A DNA stretch of 53,830 bases from an uncultured virus (IMG/VR IMGVR_UViG_3300044858_003318) (taxonomy: Duplodnaviria; Heunggongvirae; Uroviricota; Caudoviricetes), in IMG/VR virus record IMGVR_UViG_3300044858_003318; one strand, written 5' to 3'. Of this stretch, positions 2,782-42,427 are shown in pieces; within the stretch, counting starts at the first letter, position 1; each line of letters starts with the position of its first letter. The position numbers were made by a program, and so were the translations under genes. The notes below the pieces were generated by a model. That model searched no databases. It saw nothing but the letters and a program-made list of their open reading frames with translations, and was not told where the DNA came from.

Positions 2782-3558
2782 TCAAACTCCCCTTTTAGTA
2801 TCATATGCCACGATATGGTCTCTTCCTGTCATGTTATAACCATGGTTAGCACACATTTCAAATACCAACGGATACATTTTAATCAATTCGTCTCTAGTAT
2901 CACCAGCAGGCATTATGTACGTTTTATCCTTTGGAATATTATGTTGAATCCTAAACAATTCAATTTCTTGTAGATTCTCTTCAGTACCATCCCAGACTGG
3001 TTTATAGTGATAATCTGCGTGATATGCAATCATTTTATCTATCGCTTCGCTATTGAGACGGAATTTATTATGTTGCTTAACCATCTTTTCATCCGTAATC
3101 GTCCCTTGCGGTGTAGCAACGCCCACAACGGGTACGCTATTGGCAAACTTAGGACTAATAGAAAGGAGGCCAATAGGGTAATCAGTTTCAATATAATGAG
3201 AACCTTCAGTTTCAATAGTAATAAGAATATCTCTTTCATGTGCAAAATGTGTCAATTCATTAACTAGTGCTGGATGCATTGTCGGGGATCCTCCAGTTAA
3301 CATCATTTCTTTAATATGTGGATTTTCGTCGTAAATTTTAATAATATCATTGAATGTAAAAGTACCTTTTTCTGGATGAATTGAACTGTACCAGCTATCG
3401 CACCAGCCACCTTCACCAAAATAGCATCGATGAGTGCATCCGGTAGTGCGTACTGCGATTGTTGGTCTACCAAATCGGCTTCCTTCTGATTGCACACAAC
3501 GATATAATTCTATGATTGGCAATGTTTTATTGTAGTCTGTTATTCTTCCTGGCTTCAT
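2782..3558 (-). CDS. queE: 7-carboxy-7-deazaguanine synthase (radical SAM)
   Basis: ELYRCVQSEG, VRTTGCTHRCYFGEGGWCDS, LTGGSP, ITIETEG, SISPK; start moved to MKPGR (3558), which has AAGGA upstream. Confidence 0.9.
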   Translation of the reverse strand: MKPGRITDYNKTLPIIELYRCVQSEGSRFGRPTIAVRTTGCTHRCYFGEGGWCDSWYSSIHPEKGTFTFNDIIKIYDENPHIKEMMLTGGSPTMHPALVNELTHFAHERDILITIETEGSHYIETDYPIGLLSISPKFANSVPVVGVATPQGTITDEKMVKQHNKFRLNSEAIDKMIAYHADYHYKPVWDGTEENLQEIELFRIQHNIPKDKTYIMPAGDTRDELIKMYPLVFEMCANHGYNMTGRDHIVAYDTKRGV

Positions 3559-3565
3559 AAATTCC

Positions 3566-3937
3566 TTAAAATGGTAGGTCGTCATCGATTGACTCAACAC
3601 TATTGGTAACATTGGTATCTAATTTTTTAATTAATTCATCAAACTTATTTTCTAATGAATATAAACGTTCAAGTAAATAACGCAAATCAGCCTGTGCTAA
3701 TTCAGAAGCAAATGTATCACCGGGTGTAGTTTTGCCAAAGTATTCATCTAGAAATGATTTTGGATATGTTGCTACTCGATTATATTCTGGTCTAGATAAG
3801 TCTGGTGGTAGATCTTGATAAATAACATGAATATTTTTTGACTTTGCAGCTTCATACACTTTTTGACCTAGTCCACTTTCTCGAGATGCTTTACCACTGT
3901 AATCATACAGTGACATATATTGATCATTACTCTTCAT
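3566..3937 (-). CDS. Hypothetical protein with coiled coil and SSB-like acidic tail (DDDLPF)
   Basis: 123-aa ORF packed within the que cluster. Confidence 0.75.
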   Translation of the reverse strand: MKSNDQYMSLYDYSGKASRESGLGQKVYEAAKSKNIHVIYQDLPPDLSRPEYNRVATYPKSFLDEYFGKTTPGDTFASELAQADLRYLLERLYSLENKFDELIKKLDTNVTNSVESIDDDLPF

Positions 3938-3940
3938 GGT

Positions 3941-4156
3941 TTAGTTATTTGGTTTAACCGTTATTGTATATTTTCTAGTATAACTAGAATCCTCGTTTTT
4001 TACTAACACACCTAGTACTGGTATAAATTCGTTAGGATCAAACATAATTGGTGTAACAACAACACTTAGATTGGAGTTTTCTAAAGCAATTTTAATTTGT
4101 TGAGTTATTGCCATCTCATTAACTTCTACTTTCATTTGGTCTTTATTATTGTTCAT
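3941..4156 (-). CDS. Hypothetical protein
   Basis: 71-aa ORF filling the gap and overlapping the queD stop. Confidence 0.65.
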   Translation of the reverse strand: MNNNKDQMKVEVNEMAITQQIKIALENSNLSVVVTPIMFDPNEFIPVLGVLVKNEDSSYTRKYTITVKPNN

Positions 4157-4610
4157 AACTTGCTGAATTTCGTTCGTGTTCGTATACTTCTATTTTGATA
4201 GCTTTTACTCGGCCTTCTGTTTCTTCTTTTAAGAATGCATTTATTACATAATATAAATGTTCTGCAAATTTTTCACATCCAGTAGCTGGTAAAATTCTTA
4301 ATTGAATAATACCATCTTCATCCATTTGTTTGAATTTATCTAAATATGGATCATCTAATGCAACGATTGTAGTATGATCTAATAAAAATGTAAAATAATC
4401 TTTTGGAGACATACCTGCAATTTGAGTTTTAGAACGCTTCATACCGCCAAAATCCCATACCCAATTACGATGATCTAATTCTCCTTCAAACCATACTCTA
4501 AATGATACAGCATATCCATGTAAGAATTTACAATGAGTATCTTCTGCTTTCCATTGACGGAAACAAGTTGAGTAACCATCAAATAATTTTGTTGAAATGT
4601 AACGTGCCAT
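4146..4610 (-). CDS. queD: 6-carboxytetrahydropterin synthase (QueD/PTPS family)
   Basis: HCKFLHGY, WVWDFGG, LDHT, GCEKFAE, EVYEHERNSA motifs. Confidence 0.92.
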   Translation of the reverse strand: MARYISTKLFDGYSTCFRQWKAEDTHCKFLHGYAVSFRVWFEGELDHRNWVWDFGGMKRSKTQIAGMSPKDYFTFLLDHTTIVALDDPYLDKFKQMDEDGIIQLRILPATGCEKFAEHLYYVINAFLKEETEGRVKAIKIEVYEHERNSASYEQ

Positions 4611-4611
4611 A

Positions 4612-5316
4612 TTAATTATTATAACCTTTTACAAATTGATAAAATTCTGATCTTGCGTTGCCATCTTCTAAAAATGCACCAGATAATTTCGCAGTTTTCA
4701 TTGAAGCACCACCATGCTTAACTCCTCGACATTGCACACAGTTATGAGTTGCTTCAATCATTACTGCTACACCTTTATTGTTTTCGATAAGTTCATCAAT
4801 TGCGTGGTGGATAGCAACAGTTAATTGTTCTTGAATTGCACCTCGTCTGCCAAAGTGCTCAACTACTCGATTCAATTTACTTAAACCAATAACGTTGCTA
4901 TTTTCACCCGGAATATATGCAACGTGAACTAGACCCATAATAGTTTGATGATGATGGCTACACATTGATGTTAATGGAATACCTCCTTCAAACACAATGC
5001 CATCGTATCCATCACTTGGAAATGCTGTAATATCTGACATTGGTTCATATCGACCGGCCCATAAGTCATTTACATATGCCTTTGCTACTCGCCGAGGTGT
5101 ATCAGCCGAGTTTGGATCAGATTCCCATGTTACGCCTAATGCGGTTAAGAATTGACCATAATGATATGCAGCTTTATCGATAATAGCTTGTTTTTCTTCT
5201 GTAGTCAATCTAGCATCTGGACCTTCAATCGATTGTTTTGTTGCTAACTGAATAGAAACTCCATTTGCAAAGCCAGGATGCACTAATTCTAAATTTGTTC
5301 TTTGTTTCGTTGTCAT
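4612..5316 (-). CDS. folE: GTP cyclohydrolase I
   Basis: TPRRVAK, SMCSHH, GLSKLNR, QEQLT, HNCVQCRG. Confidence 0.96.
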   Translation of the reverse strand: MTTKQRTNLELVHPGFANGVSIQLATKQSIEGPDARLTTEEKQAIIDKAAYHYGQFLTALGVTWESDPNSADTPRRVAKAYVNDLWAGRYEPMSDITAFPSDGYDGIVFEGGIPLTSMCSHHHQTIMGLVHVAYIPGENSNVIGLSKLNRVVEHFGRRGAIQEQLTVAIHHAIDELIENNKGVAVMIEATHNCVQCRGVKHGGASMKTAKLSGAFLEDGNARSEFYQFVKGYNN

Positions 5317-30420: not shown

Positions 30421-31233
30421 TTATATCATATTTCTTACAGAACTTAAAAATACTGTTGTTGAATCAAATGTAATCATTGTTACAATATCAATTGCGTTTG
30501 ATATTTGTGAACCAGTATATGCAGAACCACTTGGTTGATCAACGGTAGATGGAAAACTTACTGTACCTGTTCCAGCTGAACCTTGATTTACTCTAATATT
30601 GACTGTTTGTCCTGGTTGTAGGTTAGTTGGGTTAATATGGGTGTTTGCTCCATTTACTAAATTTAAAATAAAGAAGTTACCAAAAGACATATTAAGTGAA
30701 GCAGTATTTGATGAAATGGAAAGTGTGGATACATTTCCACGTAATGAACCAGTTATTACTTGACTTCCTGTTATAGTTAATGAACCAGTTATAAGAGTAT
30801 TACCTGTTGAAGTAATACGCATTCGTTCAATTGATGAATCTGAATTAGAAGGTAAAGTAGTAGAGGGTGAAGTGCTAAATATTATATCATCTGCATAAAA
30901 ATTCGTTCCAGCATTATGATTAAATTCTATTTTTGAAGTAATATTATTACTAGATCCAAGATCATAACCATGACCTATTTTCATAGATACTGGGGCTGAA
31001 TTAGTTCCAATTATATTTGGTTGGGTTGAGGTTGTAGATATATGAAGACTATGAGCTGGGGTAGTTGTTCCAATTCCAACTATTCCACCAAATGAAGCTG
31101 TTGAAGCATTCTGTGTAATTGAACCTGTAATTACTACTTGTTGATTAAGTGGGTTGACAAATGAAGCCGTAGATGCAAATGAAGCACTCTCTGCTGTTAT
31201 TTGAAAACCGTTTATTTTGCTTACGTTACTCAT
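30421..31233 (-). CDS. Tail fibre-like structural protein
   Basis: VGIGTTTP, ERMRITSTGN, ITGS repeats, C-terminal VNQGSAG...DIVT domain. Confidence 0.75.
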   Translation of the reverse strand: MSNVSKINGFQITAESASFASTASFVNPLNQQVVITGSITQNASTASFGGIVGIGTTTPAHSLHISTTSTQPNIIGTNSAPVSMKIGHGYDLGSSNNITSKIEFNHNAGTNFYADDIIFSTSPSTTLPSNSDSSIERMRITSTGNTLITGSLTITGSQVITGSLRGNVSTLSISSNTASLNMSFGNFFILNLVNGANTHINPTNLQPGQTVNIRVNQGSAGTGTVSFPSTVDQPSGSAYTGSQISNAIDIVTMITFDSTTVFLSSVRNMI

Positions 31234-33392
31234 ATCTCATACCAATCGTTAGATGGGTTAAATTTCATTATCCAATAGTCAGGTGTTGTTGCGCTGTTGT
31301 AGTACATATGGCCTACCACTCTCACATATCCTGAGGTTGGTTTAGTTGTAGTAAGGGATGACTGTGATCCGGTTAAATATACAGGCATACCGTAAAAGTT
31401 ACTTCCTCTTACATATGGTACATCTATAATAGCAGATGAGGTTGTTACAGTAACTATTCCATCTATTAAGATACCACCTCTAACGTACCCATTAGTACAA
31501 ATTCCTAAAAGTTTTGTAGTATTATCTGTTGATTGGTCTGCTAGTTTCCATACACCATCTGTATCTAAAAATACAGTATTTGATGCTGTTACTGCCAAAT
31601 CAATATTTGGGCCAACCTCTATAAGTTTACCAGCAAAATTAGAAGCTATACTACCAAACCCGGTTGTGGTTGCAATAAATTCATCTTGAGAAGTTTCATT
31701 TGAAATTTCAATAGTAGGTCGATAATTTACTATATTAAGTCCAGAAGTACCACTCCAGTCTATTGATGGATTACCTCCGGTGTCGTCTGCTCGACGGTTT
31801 TCCCAATTTATAGATGTGTTACCTGACGAATCGAGATTAACTCTGTTTGTCCAATCACTTGATATATTACCGGCAGTATCTAATAAATAACGGTTCTGCC
31901 AATCAATTGATTGAAGTTGGGTTGTATCATATGAAATACGATTTTGCCAATCTACGGAACTAATATTACTATCATCTGTTAATGTACTAGTTGCAGTATC
32001 TAGTTTAACATTAGTTCCATTATTTACAGAAAATGATCCAGTAACTCCTAAGCTTCCAGTTATCTGTGCTGAGCCAGTGTATGGGAATACCGGAGCATAT
32101 GATGCTGATGTTGCGAATGATGCGGTACCTAGTAGTGACCCTGTAAATGAAGTTGCTGACAAACTTCCCGTTAATCCGTATGATCCGGTAAGCTGTCTAC
32201 CACTAATCCAAACGCTTCCAGATTTTACTAATATATCACCAAAGGATGATGTAGTTGTAGTTTCTCTAACATCATGTAACTCCCCAATCTCCCATCCATT
32301 TGATATATGCGTAAATATAGATCCTACGGTATTATGCACCCTAACAATATATCCTAATAGTACTGTATGTTGTGGTGCTTGTGGCTGTGTAGTTGTCCAT
32401 CCACCTGGGGTGGTTGGTGATAACCAAACTGGCGATCCGCCTATTGTACCACTGGTATTTATGTTATTAATAAATCCAAATGTAGTAACATAACCTTCAG
32501 CACCAGATAATATAGATTCTGCAGTAAATCCTAAAGTTGTTGCTGAATATCCATCAGTCGTACCAATCGCTCTGTTAACCGAAGGTCTATTTCCTTGTGA
32601 CCCGGAAACAAAAACTACTTCTCCTTTGTTTAAGGTAGTTCCTGTATTATTAAAAACCAATACAACATTTTCTTGACCTAACTCTACATTAACGTTTCCG
32701 CCCTTTAACATTAAGTCTAACGTGCCGGCGCCATCATCCCAACCTAATTGCCCAACTTGAGTTACTCCACTCGCAGTTGTGTAAAAGTGTATGCTGTTAG
32801 GATTGAAGATAGAACCAGATATGTTAAACGATCCAGTCATAGTAAGTGCTGAGCCGTCAAAGGTTAAAGCCGCTTCTCCGTTTAATTCTGGAGAGGTTCC
32901 GGTGGCTGTAATCAATCTGTTATTGACATTTGTACCACCGTTAAATGTAGCTCCGCCACCAGAACCTGATAGTAGATTTGTTCCAGCACCTCCGGCTGCA
33001 GCTGTTAGGTCAATGTATGCTCCTCTTGCAGCCCCTCCTTGTTCAAAAAATCGAATTTTATTTTGATACACATCAATGGTAACACCACTACCAGTAAGGG
33101 ATGTATTAGTAACCGGTTTGTTTAGCAGTATTTCTCCACCTTCATCTCCCGATTGATAAAGTACACTTAATTTAGAACCATCAAATGTTAGTAATGATTC
33201 AGCATTTAATGTGCCATCTCCGTTAGCAGTTAACACTCGAGTGTCTGCATCATTCGATATAGCAGGTGTTATGTTAGAAGCTGTTAGAGAAAATGAGGCT
33301 GTCCCAAGTAGAGACCCAGTTATACTAGGCGAATATAAAGAATTTAATGCAGCATCCGATCCGGATACTATGACTTTTTTCCATGCTGGCAT
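31230..33392 (-). CDS. Tail fibre/appendage-like structural protein
   Basis: MPAWKKVIVSGS N-terminus shared with 33882..34925; TGS/ASF motifs; S(I/V)DWxNR repeats. Confidence 0.75.
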   Translation of the reverse strand: MPAWKKVIVSGSDAALNSLYSPSITGSLLGTASFSLTASNITPAISNDADTRVLTANGDGTLNAESLLTFDGSKLSVLYQSGDEGGEILLNKPVTNTSLTGSGVTIDVYQNKIRFFEQGGAARGAYIDLTAAAGGAGTNLLSGSGGGATFNGGTNVNNRLITATGTSPELNGEAALTFDGSALTMTGSFNISGSIFNPNSIHFYTTASGVTQVGQLGWDDGAGTLDLMLKGGNVNVELGQENVVLVFNNTGTTLNKGEVVFVSGSQGNRPSVNRAIGTTDGYSATTLGFTAESILSGAEGYVTTFGFINNINTSGTIGGSPVWLSPTTPGGWTTTQPQAPQHTVLLGYIVRVHNTVGSIFTHISNGWEIGELHDVRETTTTSSFGDILVKSGSVWISGRQLTGSYGLTGSLSATSFTGSLLGTASFATSASYAPVFPYTGSAQITGSLGVTGSFSVNNGTNVKLDTATSTLTDDSNISSVDWQNRISYDTTQLQSIDWQNRYLLDTAGNISSDWTNRVNLDSSGNTSINWENRRADDTGGNPSIDWSGTSGLNIVNYRPTIEISNETSQDEFIATTTGFGSIASNFAGKLIEVGPNIDLAVTASNTVFLDTDGVWKLADQSTDNTTKLLGICTNGYVRGGILIDGIVTVTTSSAIIDVPYVRGSNFYGMPVYLTGSQSSLTTTKPTSGYVRVVGHMYYNSATTPDYWIMKFNPSNDWYEI

Positions 33393-33405
33393 ATTATACT
33401 CCTAC

Positions 33406-33467
33406 CATTGTGGTTAGATACATACACTTATGCCGTGTATATGCCTACTTCCTTGCGGCCTACAATG
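33406..33467 (-). ncRNA. Candidate structured 5' leader RNA (three-way junction)
   Basis: P1 CAUUGU(A)GG/CCACAAUG; P2 CC-GCAA-GG; P3 UAGG.AUAUACAC/GUGUAUGU.UCUA; lies between a class B motif and an AGGAG SD. Confidence 0.65.
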
Positions 33468-33484
33468 ATTTATTAATAAATATA

Positions 33485-33670
33485 TTAACGAGGTTTTTTA
33501 CTGGTTTGTTTAGAATCCATTTGTTTAGCAATTTCTGCAATCTCTGATTCTAATTTAACCTGAAGTGATGCAATAGTTTTAGCATCTTTACCAGTAATAG
33601 TGATTACATCTAATGATTGTCGTAAAATACTAATTTCTTGCGGTGTTAAATCTATAGCAAATAAATCCAT
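33485..33670 (-). CDS. Small helical hypothetical protein
   Basis: 61-aa ORF that resembles its upstream neighbour (LT..E...L...L....ITG.....  pattern). Confidence 0.7.
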   Translation of the reverse strand: MDLFAIDLTPQEISILRQSLDVITITGKDAKTIASLQVKLESEIAEIAKQMDSKQTSKKPR

Positions 33671-33672
33671 AA

Positions 33673-33861
33673 CTATTTAGTTTGTTCGGTGTATTGATTT
33701 TGTAATTTGATTACCATATTATAAAACAATTCAACTTGTTCGCCGGTTAATGTGGATGTACGTAACATTGTTAATAAAAATTCTAATTCAGAAGTATTTA
33801 ACTGATTTACGGATTGATTAGCTTGATGTGCCGGTTTATTTATTTTATTTATGATACCCAT
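33673..33861 (-). CDS. Small helical hypothetical protein
   Basis: Start moved to MGIINK (33861) to avoid overlap; class A promoter upstream. Confidence 0.7.
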   Translation of the reverse strand: MGIINKINKPAHQANQSVNQLNTSELEFLLTMLRTSTLTGEQVELFYNMVIKLQNQYTEQTK

Positions 33862-33868
33862 ATAACTT

Positions 33869-33897
33869 ATTATATATAATATTACGCATAAATCCAA
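33869..33897 (-). promoter_or_regulatory. Class A promoter TTGGAT-N17-TATAAT
   Basis: Exact 17-nt spacer; overlaps the end of the upstream gene. Confidence 0.6.
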
Positions 33898-34925
33898 ATA
33901 TCACCTGCCGTAGATGTATACATTGCACCTTGAACTGCAAACTCACCAGTTACTGGTTTAGTAGCACCATGATTTGCTTCAGTAAATAAATATGGTACAA
34001 ATGAACCACTAACTCCTCCAGCAGATGTCGGATCTAATGCATTGGTAGTATCAGTGACACCGGATTGGAATCCCCAACGATCTGTTGCTGCATCAAATCC
34101 ATATGCAATGTTACCAGCAGCATCCGAACCTCTATCGATAATAATACCACCATCACTTGATGCAGCAGATCCGGATGCTAACAAGATAAATTTATCTTCT
34201 ACATATAAATCTTGAACATTAATAAATGTAGTAGTACCATTAACAGTTAAATCTCCAGTTACAACTAAACTATTATTTACTGTAGTTGTACCAGAACCAG
34301 CGCCTAAATTTAATGTTGTTGCTGCACCAAATGCGTTAACAGTAGTAGCATTGGTATTAAATACGGTGGCGGTTGCGGCGGTTGTAGTAATATCGCCGCC
34401 ATTAACTGCTGCATCACCGGTTAATGTCAATCCTACAAATTGTGGCGAATCGCCAGTTTCTAAACCTAAATCGATAGTCGATCCTGCTACACCGTTTGTT
34501 GTAAGTACAGCTTGTCCTTGACCCGGCGATGATAATACAGATGATGACACAATACCAGCTGGTAATTGAGCTGAACCAGACCAGACACCTGATCCGTTAA
34601 GGATTTGTGCTTGTGTTATAGATCCGCCTAATGAAACAGAAGTTCCTGCTATTGTAATAGATGAATTTGTTAAGCTAGCATTTGGGATACTACCGAGAGT
34701 AAATGTGATAGTGTCTGTAGTTGCATTTCCAGTAATATCTAATCCAGCACCAGATGATGATGCAAACGTTAATGTGTCAACGGATGAATCTGCAATTACA
34801 GAAATGCCGTTAATAGACATAGTAGCAAATGTATTTTGTTGTGTTACCGCGGTTAAATATCCAGCATCATTATTAAGTTGTGATATATTACTACCGGATA
34901 CAACTACCTTTTTCCAAACTGCCAT
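33882..34925 (-). CDS. Fibre-like structural protein
   Basis: MAVWKKVVVSGS, ISQLNNDAGYLT, GDLTVNGTTT..VEDKFI motifs typical of phage fibres. Confidence 0.78.
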   Translation of the reverse strand: MAVWKKVVVSGSNISQLNNDAGYLTAVTQQNTFATMSINGISVIADSSVDTLTFASSSGAGLDITGNATTDTITFTLGSIPNASLTNSSITIAGTSVSLGGSITQAQILNGSGVWSGSAQLPAGIVSSSVLSSPGQGQAVLTTNGVAGSTIDLGLETGDSPQFVGLTLTGDAAVNGGDITTTAATATVFNTNATTVNAFGAATTLNLGAGSGTTTVNNSLVVTGDLTVNGTTTFINVQDLYVEDKFILLASGSAASSDGGIIIDRGSDAAGNIAYGFDAATDRWGFQSGVTDTTNALDPTSAGGVSGSFVPYLFTEANHGATKPVTGEFAVQGAMYTSTAGDIWIYA

Positions 34926-34976: not shown

Positions 34977-35291
34977 CTAATCCAATCCTACAAAAAACGA
35001 ACCTGATGTAAAATATATTCCGCCATTCGGTGCTGGATTTGATAATTCTGCTGATTGTGTTGCTACTACAATAACTCGATCAGATTGTATTTTAAACAAA
35101 TCAATGCTAGCAGATTTAACTAAAAATAAATCATTAACTGTGTTAACTTGAGCTATAACGCTACCACTAATAATTCTAAATGATTCACCGCCTCCACCGT
35201 TTGCGACGTAAGATGCTGTTAATGCAAAACTAGAAGATATATCATAAAGAGATCCGGTACGTAATTGTCCTGGTTTAAACTGCCTTGCCAT
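34977..35291 (-). CDS. Small structural protein (SGS/TAS-rich)
   Basis: Start MARQFK at 35291 overlaps the upstream stop (TAATG). Confidence 0.7.
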   Translation of the reverse strand: MARQFKPGQLRTGSLYDISSSFALTASYVANGGGGESFRIISGSVIAQVNTVNDLFLVKSASIDLFKIQSDRVIVVATQSAELSNPAPNGGIYFTSGSFFVGLD

Positions 35292-36511
35292 TATTGCCAT
35301 CTCCCATTAATAACAACGCTATCTAATGTATCAATAGTATAACCTAAGCCTATAGTATCAAAAACAATAGTTTGTGTTGATGATAATGATGGTGTCCATG
35401 TATAAAGAGCTTTATCGATATATTGGCCGTTTATATAAACATTAAATTCATTTTTAGTTGCAGCAACTGTTGTTACTGAATTATATGCAGCTGAAGCTGT
35501 TACAGTTACAGTGTTATTTGAAACATATACTGCTGTTTTATCGGATAAATTAGTCAAGTATGCCATTACTTCTGCATTAATTGTAGCAGTAGTACCTCCA
35601 GATACTGAAACCGACCCACCGTTTGCTATATATCCGCGGCTTTGCATTAATGCAGGTGGAACTACTGTTGATGCAAATATATCTTCAGAAACATCGACTA
35701 CTTGATCGAATGAAAGTTTTTTAATAGAAAACATTTTTCGAAGTGTGGATCTACGTGCTTCTTGTTCAGATAGCAATGTACCTAATACAGTTAATGGTAT
35801 AGTAGCTCTAACTAATCGGTCTTCTCCAACAGTGTTAACTGTTTCGAATGATACTGACCCTAATGTTGTTGAAAATTTATTGTTTTCGTTACCCCACGCA
35901 AATCGCCCATATGGCATTATTTGATCGACCAGTGAATTCATTTGTGTGGTAAAATCACACCAAAGTAGCATGTCATATTCAACTGTTACGTATTTAGGAA
36001 TATCTACAACATATACTTTTTCTGATGGCTGTGGGTTATTAATTGGAATTGGAAACAATTCATCTTGATATCTGGAACGTTCATTGTATTTGGTTTTATA
36101 AATCCGTACGTTTTCAGATTGTGGTCTGTTAACATCCAATGATTTAACAGAGTCTCGTTCAACCATAGAGTTACGTTTCAACATGATTACCGGAGATTGT
36201 AACATTCCTTTTTCATCGCGTAAATATCCTAATCGACGCACATTGTCCCATTTTTCACCATTTGAAAAAATTACTGGTACATTGATAGTTTGACTATTAG
36301 CTGTTACTTGAGGCTGTATTTCGTTGTCAATAAACCATTTAATTGCAAAGTCAATATCATAAATATTTCGTTTTGCTGTACGTATTATGTCATCATCTCG
36401 TCGAATTTGTTCTGCCCGATTCAAAAACAAATCATTTCCTAATCCTTCTGTTTGTGTGGGATTGGGTTTATTTGTTTTTCGATCAATATTTTGTCTATTT
36501 AATCTAGGCAT
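35291..36511 (-). CDS. Tail terminator / sheath stabiliser (T4 gp15-like) with C-terminal extension
   Basis: VPVIFSNGEKW, P.IMLKR, IPKYVTVEYD..QMN.LVDQI; follows the neck genes. Confidence 0.7.
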   Translation of the reverse strand: MPRLNRQNIDRKTNKPNPTQTEGLGNDLFLNRAEQIRRDDDIIRTAKRNIYDIDFAIKWFIDNEIQPQVTANSQTINVPVIFSNGEKWDNVRRLGYLRDEKGMLQSPVIMLKRNSMVERDSVKSLDVNRPQSENVRIYKTKYNERSRYQDELFPIPINNPQPSEKVYVVDIPKYVTVEYDMLLWCDFTTQMNSLVDQIMPYGRFAWGNENNKFSTTLGSVSFETVNTVGEDRLVRATIPLTVLGTLLSEQEARRSTLRKMFSIKKLSFDQVVDVSEDIFASTVVPPALMQSRGYIANGGSVSVSGGTTATINAEVMAYLTNLSDKTAVYVSNNTVTVTASAAYNSVTTVAATKNEFNVYINGQYIDKALYTWTPSLSSTQTIVFDTIGLGYTIDTLDSVVINGRWQ

Positions 36512-42184: not shown

Positions 42185-42427
42185 TTATTCGTTTGCTGAT
42201 TTTATACGTTGAATGTATGCAGCTTTGGTTTTTTGCTGACGATTTGTTACACTAGGTTTAATATATTCTTGTTTGTCTTTAACCCGATTCAATATGTTAG
42301 CAGATTTTACTTTACGTTTCCATGCCTTTAATGCATGTGCTAAATCCATTGCTTCTGTACCTACTACATTTATAGCTAAAGAATTACCAGGAACAATTTG
42401 TTGATGTTGTTTTTGTTTTTTACTCAT
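42185..42427 (-). CDS. rpsU: Phage-encoded 30S ribosomal protein bS21
   Basis: ALKAWKRKVK...EYIKPSVTNRQQKTKAAYIQ matches the bS21 pattern. Confidence 0.88.
   Translation of the reverse strand: MSKKQKQHQQIVPGNSLAINVVGTEAMDLAHALKAWKRKVKSANILNRVKDKQEYIKPSVTNRQQKTKAAYIQRIKSANE

Follow-up and report, generated by a model that had tools for sequence, protein, structure and literature searches.

The pseudoknot of the Escherichia coli rpsO (S15) message covers the initiation region of that gene. In this operator, a fold with a pseudoknot is stabilised by a protein and represses translation (available text of PMC3985624). Bacteriophage T4 carries a series of inhibitory structures and operators, including hairpins at genes e, soc, 49 and I-TevI, a pseudoknot at gene 32 and a hairpin at gene 43 (described in the accessible sections of PMC3014915). 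Coupling of two genes through RNA unfolding is described for f1 VII-IX, MS2 coat-lysis and rpmI-rplT (accessible sections of PMC12548453), and the glutamine-I (glnA) riboswitch is a three-way junction of about 60 nt with a GGAAGU run at the P2/P3 junction that faces AA, as in the RNA described here. Conserved RNA controls have barely been catalogued for the structural genes of phages.

The leader RNA analysed here lies in a window of 53,830 nucleotides, the whole stretch of DNA that we examined, from the uncultured virus IMGVR_UViG_3300044858_003318. Like the structures of T4 e, soc and similar genes, it is a phage mRNA structure placed beside a ribosome-binding site, with the Shine-Dalgarno (SD) sequence and/or AUG apparently sequestered and a late-promoter motif nearby. 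Transcripts from the late promoter of T4 gene e begin inside the structure and so lack its 5' arm (PMC3014915, accessible sections), whereas here the whole fold follows the motif, with 5-11 nt between the motif and P1 in most copies, which, with start sites placed according to the motif, argues against a switch of the e/soc type. The phage leader further differs from the T4 operators in its conserved three-way core, its exchangeable, putatively masking arms and its target, a virion fibre gene. Unlike rpsO and other ribosomal-protein leaders, it matches no Rfam leader and precedes a gene that is not ribosomal, and mimicry of rRNA was not seen, as there was no model match in the host-type genome G001. 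The element probably works like a translational operator of the T4 or rpsO type, and belongs to no Rfam family. Its parts, and the motifs on either side, are as follows.

33476-33483, minus strand: ATATTTAT, probable phage (late) promoter element (from motif counts; promoter function deduced)
33404-33469, minus strand: three-way-junction leader RNA, the entire element including the 2-bp extension of P1 (folding; match to model R1, 59.7 bits; covariation)
33459-33469, minus strand: P1 5' strand, with outer helix 33469-33462, 1-nt bulge A33461 and inner GG 33460-33459 (inner pairs counted, outer pairs covarying)
33451-33458, minus strand: P2 hairpin CC-GCAA-GG, an arm that varies across the family (counts in 85 gene-selected copies)
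33447-33450, minus strand: junction AAGU, conserved core, facing AA 33415-33414 (counts in the same 85 copies)
33416-33446, minus strand: P3 arm, with AG/CU, 2-nt 3' bulge, GC/GU and distal stem (counts and register comparison)
33428-33434, minus strand: P3 loop GGCAUAA, whose GGCAUA complements the start-codon region (sequence; loop class in 81/83 long-P3 copies)
33404-33413, minus strand: P1 3' strand (CC plus ACAAUGGU), with the SD directly after it (folding)
33399-33403, minus strand: SD-like AGGAG (sequence)
33388-33393, minus strand: UAUGCC, comprising base -1, the start codon and the opening CC of codon 2; proposed to form a pseudoknot with the P3 loop (by complementarity)

The window belongs to a virus record of 159,977 bases, and its genes include T4-like capsid, portal, sheath and replication genes as well as a bS21 gene (phrog_21469; 42185-42427, minus strand); the phage itself also encodes a sigma-70 factor. 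Freshwater Bacteroidetes are the predicted hosts of bS21 phages (PMC9723584, in the text available), and the ribosomes of Bacteroidota-type hosts are normally SD-blind (PMC7797042, likewise in part). The cultured relatives found for the N-terminus of the fibre gene were four records, all of Flavobacterium phage immuto. The element is one copy of a conserved RNA in T4-like, bS21-encoding phages related to immuto.

The original prediction, a GC-richer island of 62 nt folding on the coding strand, agrees with what we calculated: minus-strand 33467-33406 folds as P1/P2(GCAA)/AAG/P3 at -16.7 kcal/mol (z -2.2; 4/200 shuffles as good), its GC content is 43.5% compared to 33.7% in the window and 12% in the upstream flank, and ATATTTAT, at 33483-33476, does end 8 nt upstream of it. 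The proposed layout holds for P1, P2, the junction and the tip of P3. P1, however, gains two further pairs that extend it to 33469/33404 (z -2.9 for the extended element), so that it abuts the AGGAG at 33403-33399 instead of stopping 2 nt before it, and in the homologues the base of P3 adopts another register (AG/CU, 2-nt 3' bulge, GC/GU). The opposite strand folds worse (z -1.15). Folding as good as that of the element occurred in 88/7682 sampled 62-nt windows, and z drops to -0.9 once the flanks are included; we therefore rejected folding energy as proof of an element, and since it is unexceptional the case rests on conservation and covariation.

Leaders were selected by their gene only, by searching viral contigs for its coding start; this gave at least 123 loci and 94 distinct upstream regions. 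The element was present upstream of 85 of these 94 distinct starts among the matches listed. The nine starts that lack it directly follow a gene end that resembles, by eye, that of the 107-aa gene of the window, and so appear to belong to the first paralogue. In the 85 copies, again among the matches listed, the inner P1 pairs were GG/CC in 83 and GA/UC in 2; the base of P2 was CC/GG in 81, CU/GG in 2 and CU/AG in 2; the junction was AAGU in 83 and GAGU in 2, with the facing AA in 85/85; and the base of P3 was GG/CC in 53 and AG/CU in 32, with no mixed pair. The 2-nt 3' bulge of P3, variable in sequence, occurred in every one of these copies. The aligned leaders thus show a nearly fixed junction core, consisting of a bulged N-GG/CC, CC/GG, AAGU, RG/CY, the 2-nt bulge, RC/GU and AA, around which the arms vary freely. 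The AAGU/AA junction is possibly a module of the bulged-G/loop-E type, within which the invariant U33447-A33415 pair could be non-canonical. GNRA loops are common in the family.

Covariation was assessed in a MAFFT alignment of 99 rows, comprising the window and 98 of 113 distinct elements; the 15 others, one of which is identical to the window copy, were set aside as near-duplicates on visual inspection. The parser that delimited the elements required the inner P1 pairs, the first two P2 pairs and three outer P1 pairs, leaving P3 pairing free, and all 85 element-bearing leaders of the gene-selected set passed it, so that its constraints removed none. Double changes were found in 16 of 21 pairs, including outer P1 pairs, and 93.7% of cells pair; none of 500 shuffles reached this level, and slid controls paired at 31-45%. 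Pairing is therefore retained across homologous leaders. A tree-aware test of three pairs, for which the upstream family-B protein supplied a weak tree (233 rows, 68 columns), counted 3.7, 4.7 and 6.0 independent pairs with concordant changes and none with opposite changes (median p 0.125, 0.06 and 0.03). G-U pairs far outnumber A-C combinations (189 versus 12), which suggests that the conserved molecule is RNA of the sense strand. At the P3 tip of the long-P3 copies, C-G is replaced by U-A in 2/81. Phage immuto has a single copy, with the GA/UC change; the fact that this cultured phage (NC_055915.1) carries a copy with a compensatory change makes the question of fibre stoichiometry directly testable.

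Searches against known RNA families agreed with the earlier statement that the RNA is not a recognised riboswitch or ribozyme. Rfam 15 covariance models gave no match in the window at the gathering threshold and none on the element at E<=10, where two weak matches lie outside it; the homologue L074 gave no Rfam match either, and known self-cleaving ribozyme cores had no Rfam match on the window, the element or L074. A tRNA/tmRNA scan returned nothing, and a sigma-70 promoter scan returned only chance-level matches. The RNA has no U-tract, as had been noted, and a search for intrinsic terminators (GC stem plus U tract) found no site in 33200-34000, consistent with the view that it is not a terminator. 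We found no paper describing the motif; six core 10-mers had no match in four supplements of PMC10690425, although the alignment archives of that paper (mmc2, mmc4 and mmc5) may hold the RNA as an unnamed candidate. The leader RNA is real, widespread and uncatalogued in Rfam.

Selection by the RNA only, using stricter patterns, returned 7 GTDB matches, at least 120 metagenome matches and two sets of at least 120 viral matches. A looser pattern produced mostly chance matches in GC-rich DNA and was rejected; only matches with P1 were kept. The 350 new loci comprise 284 distinct elements, and among the matches listed the next ORF begins MP.W in 266 and MP.Y in 4 (270/284). Seven of the remaining elements precede another ORF and seven precede none that is callable; five of the former lack P1 and are thus chance matches. 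The element is single-copy, with one model match and no other copies in its genome, and across the family 12-33 nt almost always separate its end from the AUG. In the 151 genomes of the phylum to which the host-type genome G001 belongs, two weak matches were found, both inside coding sequence, and G001 itself had no model match; as a chromosomal element the RNA was not found. Hundreds of aquatic Bacteroidota-type phages have this three-armed RNA, as defined by sequence, ahead of that same fibre gene. An RNA that covaries, occurs once in its genome and is tied to one gene at a fixed distance from its AUG bears out the proposal of a cis-regulatory structured RNA, while the fixed position makes the other option offered, a small structural RNA, less likely. 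Three of the seven GTDB pattern matches (L275, L277 and L279) are real, each ahead of an MP.WKK gene; the MAG contigs that carry them bear the titles Pelagibacter, Bifidobacterium and Flavobacteriales and are probably phage contigs binned with bacteria. In one further locus, L465, the fibre gene apparently starts with GUG, 5 nt after the core.

The gene downstream of the RNA and its neighbours are listed below.

31230-33392, minus strand: 720-aa mosaic fibre gene (MPAWKKVIVSGS...), the proposed regulated gene (domains of relatives; N-terminus matching the immuto 'putative tail fiber-like protein'; model folds)
33485-33670, minus strand: 61-aa small gene, conserved upstream neighbour, family A (no named family)
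33673-33861, minus strand: 62-aa small gene, conserved upstream neighbour, family B (translation; family comparison)
33882-34925, minus strand: first paralogue, with the same N-terminal motif (MAVWKKVVVSGS) and no RNA, an internal control (one model match in the genome; phrog_6002 virion structural protein)

The 720-aa product had no sequence match in Pfam, PHROG or PDB (PDB 0). Among 8000 scored sequences, 1450 were mosaic relatives, some of which contain PF05658, PF13884, PF01391 or PF09956, which we take to be the YadA-head, S74 chaperone, collagen and DUF2190 domains. In a structural model of modest quality (pLDDT 69, pTM 0.38), the folded domains best match capsid-decoration proteins and the base of the phi29 head fibre (best E 7e-4, the only match at E<=0.001). 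The product is thus very likely a fibre, as had been predicted; its assignment to the tail fared less well, since the model best resembles capsid-decoration and phi29 head-fibre folds, and the fibre may belong to the head, neck or tail. The consecutive fibre genes at 34977-35300, 33882-34925 and 31230-33392 (minus strand) have matching end and start motifs, with G.(I/M)Y.. at the C-terminus and WKKV.VSGS at the N-terminus. Of 199 loci whose upstream DNA extends for 600 nt or more, 176 have family B there, and 187 have one or both of the small proteins. Both proteins look helical and are without a named family, and an Atlas search with the 61-aa protein returned unnamed viral clusters only; they are candidates for fibre chaperones or for the RNA ligand. 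In L009, L178, L331, L500 and L557 (L302 is incomplete), a free-standing HNH-like ORF is inserted after the first three fibre codons and has acquired the RNA leader as its own. The new start of the fibre gene overlaps the HNH stop, and W-R-K replaces W-K-K in 5/5 complete cases; the W-R-K start is possibly a cleavage-resistant allele.

To relate the fold to the start site, the 322 distinct elements were divided by arm length. Of the 319 with a spacer below 60 nt, 83 have a long P3 (the class of the window copy), 66 have a long P2, 170 are short, and none has both long arms. The P3 loop is GG(C/U)A in 81/83 long-P3 copies; in the window GGCAUA (33434-33429) is complementary to UAUGCC (33393-33388), and we infer a pseudoknot between the P3 loop and the start codon, based on this complementarity. 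In this class, base -1 is U in 66/73, compared to 109/236. In the long-P2 class the loop is of the UGGCA, UGGCG or UGGUA type, or one change away, in 64/66, which is complementary to UGCCA, and codon 2 is CCA or CCG in 66/66 compared to 224/253 others. An anti-AUGCC loop is thus conserved in both classes, each on a different helix. A scan of loop complementarity along the leader peaks at the AUG, with values of 14.6 (8.0 +/- 0.85) for long P3 and 12.7 (7.4 +/- 0.66) for long P2, the long-P2 loop being fixed to its GG-bearing hexamer; the match had been noticed before it was tested, and as the loops are near-identical within each class the peak amounts to only two or three observations. Loop variants (C>U, A>G) retain wobble pairs with the start region, and spacer length tracks P3 length (rho 0.49). 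In L155 and L215, a different loop, CUCACU, faces AGUGAG before the AUG.

Several results do not extend this pattern. The short class (168/317 copies, including immuto) has no loop-start complementarity (6.33 versus a baseline of 6.35), its P1 ending a median of 10 nt from the AUG compared to 15 nt in long P3. No double compensatory change between loop and target was found: seven GGCAUU loops still face U at -1 and seven GGCAUA loops face a non-U base, and one loop pair is broken in the long-P2 copies L334, L379, L385 and L418. On the weak tree (68 columns, 233 rows) the link to U at -1 was not significant (2.0 changes in the same direction, 0.1 in the opposite; p 0.5). Loop-AUG pairing makes up 11% of the nested ensemble of the window copy. 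As separate observations, L297 and L363 have a 57-nt spacer ending in a hairpin paired directly over AUGCCU, and in L032, L062 and L067 the junction and the AUG are separated by 118-126 nt with conserved stems of their own, the last covering the start region; this spacer is possibly a second structured element.

The classes also differ in the motifs around the fold. Of the 59 coding-strand copies of ATATTTAT, 43 lie outside long ORFs; the other strand has 8. The motif precedes 83/83 long-P3, 137/166 short and only 4/64 long-P2 copies, mostly 5-11 nt ahead of P1. We infer from these counts that it is an element of the phage sigma, in which case transcripts would begin near the 5' end of P1 and include the whole fold. 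GGAG occurs in 60/66 long-P2 copies, and in 51 of the 62 long-P2 copies with an SD it begins inside P1. The SD was rejected as a feature of the family, since GGAG was found in 15/85 gene-selected leaders among the matches listed. In the window, SD-like motifs precede 39/173 long ORFs compared to 4 in a control window, which is unusual if the host is SD-blind. As in the coupling systems, P1 of long-P2 copies starts at the upstream stop (0 nt past it in 38/55 promoter-less copies) and buries the downstream SD. In the class of the window, P1 begins at least 13 nt past the upstream stop in 73/74 copies with the promoter-like motif between, indicating that coupling is not the general trigger of the family.

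We propose, with a probability of roughly 0.65, that the RNA is a cis-acting translational operator that acts as an off-switch for the fibre gene. The structure is conserved, lies in cis and is placed at the initiation region of one particular gene, and start-codon structure lowers initiation in F. johnsoniae (PMC6847099, in the text available). The transcript would start at about the 5' end of P1 and carry the whole fold, and the folded RNA would block initiation. In the window copy, P1 would abut the SD and the P3 loop would pair with UAUGCC over the start codon as a loop-strand pseudoknot; other lineages would use the P2 loop together with burial of the SD in P1, a loop against the -12 to -4 region, or a short spacer. 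In the promoter-less long-P2 class, a ribosome terminating on the upstream gene may melt P1, which would constitute translational coupling. The core is most likely held by a protein, judged by the tie of the RNA to one structural gene and its absence before metabolic genes, which make a protein the likeliest ligand class. Candidates for this protein are the fibre, a partner in its assembly and either of the small proteins encoded upstream; by stabilising the off state, it would match fibre output to assembly. Neither RegA nor another known RNA-binding repressor was found by Pfam among 170 proteins, a scan that reached down to ~70 aa outside the window and covered all but several small ORFs within it. 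One conserved core would thus serve several ways of hiding the start site, in phages that bring bS21 into hosts whose ribosomes normally ignore the SD.

In a bolder reading, which we consider rather unlikely, the fixed core acts as a sensor, whether as the aptamer of a new riboswitch or by detecting unassembled fibre or chaperone as a measure of assembly state, and lineages repeatedly added start-masking platforms to it. If so, the phage would set the number of host-recognition fibres per virion by the conditions of the infected cell.

The fold could instead promote initiation, as a translational enhancer or re-initiation element that brings the upstream stop or an A/U-rich tract to the start, or recruits ribosomes in SD-ignoring hosts. 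The exact start of P1 at the upstream stop in those 38 of 55 promoter-less long-P2 copies and the fixed distance to the AUG fit this idea, and T4 genes 25 and 38 gain initiation through intervening structure (PMC3014915, accessible sections). We regard it as unlikely, since the SD lies downstream of the fold or within P1 and not upstream, promoter-bearing classes have little RNA upstream of P1, and anti-AUG loops and hairpins over the AUG fit masking better.

The compact near-invariant core, variable arms and downstream platform form a riboswitch-like anatomy, and AAGU..AA resembles part of the glnA E-loop (23-GAAGUAA-29 / 50-UGAAGC-55; PMC5393176, in its available portion). A small-molecule or ion riboswitch, related or similar to glutamine-I and tuning the fibre to host state, is nevertheless improbable. 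Only AAGU/AA is kept and the full E-loop (AAGUA/GAAG) with A-G pairs is missing when set against that account, the A-G position of the glnA E-loop being a covarying Watson-Crick pair here; the inner GG/CC helix and the bulges of the phage RNA are in turn absent from glnA. The glutamine pocket (C1:G59 pair, G22 and C58; PMC6698751, available text) has no conserved counterpart, as the base of P1 is variable and AU-rich. By its sequence, then, the RNA lacks these features of glutamine-I. It also lacks an Rfam match at E<=10 and was never seen before the nitrogen-metabolism genes of glutamine-I or other metabolic genes, 270/284 copies among the matches listed preceding MP.W or MP.Y and the phylum of G001 yielding only the two weak coding-region matches in 151 genomes. 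Should the core bind a small molecule, it would represent a new riboswitch class.

A fold at the 5' end of the transcript, typically 5-11 nt after the promoter-like motif, would suit a stabiliser or processing signal that controls how long the fibre mRNA lasts and not its translation. This role is decidedly improbable, given that the long-P2 class, with the motif in 4/64, retains the fold, that other motif-led late genes have no copy, and that a plain hairpin would suffice, leaving the anti-AUG loops unexplained. Small self-cleaving ribozymes occur in phages and combine, as here, a fixed core with variable arms; a ribozyme or free structural RNA is very improbable for an element with no Rfam ribozyme match, one gene, one distance and no terminator after it. 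An element acting as DNA, for instance a site at which mosaic fibre genes recombine or are exchanged, would suit the mosaic downstream gene and the HNH genes inserted right behind its first codons, but is scarcely credible against the sense-strand excess of G-U over A-C (189 versus 12), the common GNRA loops and the poorer folding of the opposite strand (z -1.15).

Some features of the phage genome are recorded here in their own right. Genes for GTP cyclohydrolase I, a radical SAM protein and a TGT-like protein lie at window positions 2782-5316 (minus strand) and at L630:3979-5226, which suggests 7-deazaguanine DNA modification, and immuto is mentioned in a preprint on this modification, in the part available. 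The genome also contains a large glycosyltransferase and sugar-biosynthesis cluster together with a PAS-domain protein (L630:10699-18638, L631:3184-10533 and L631:10923-12035).
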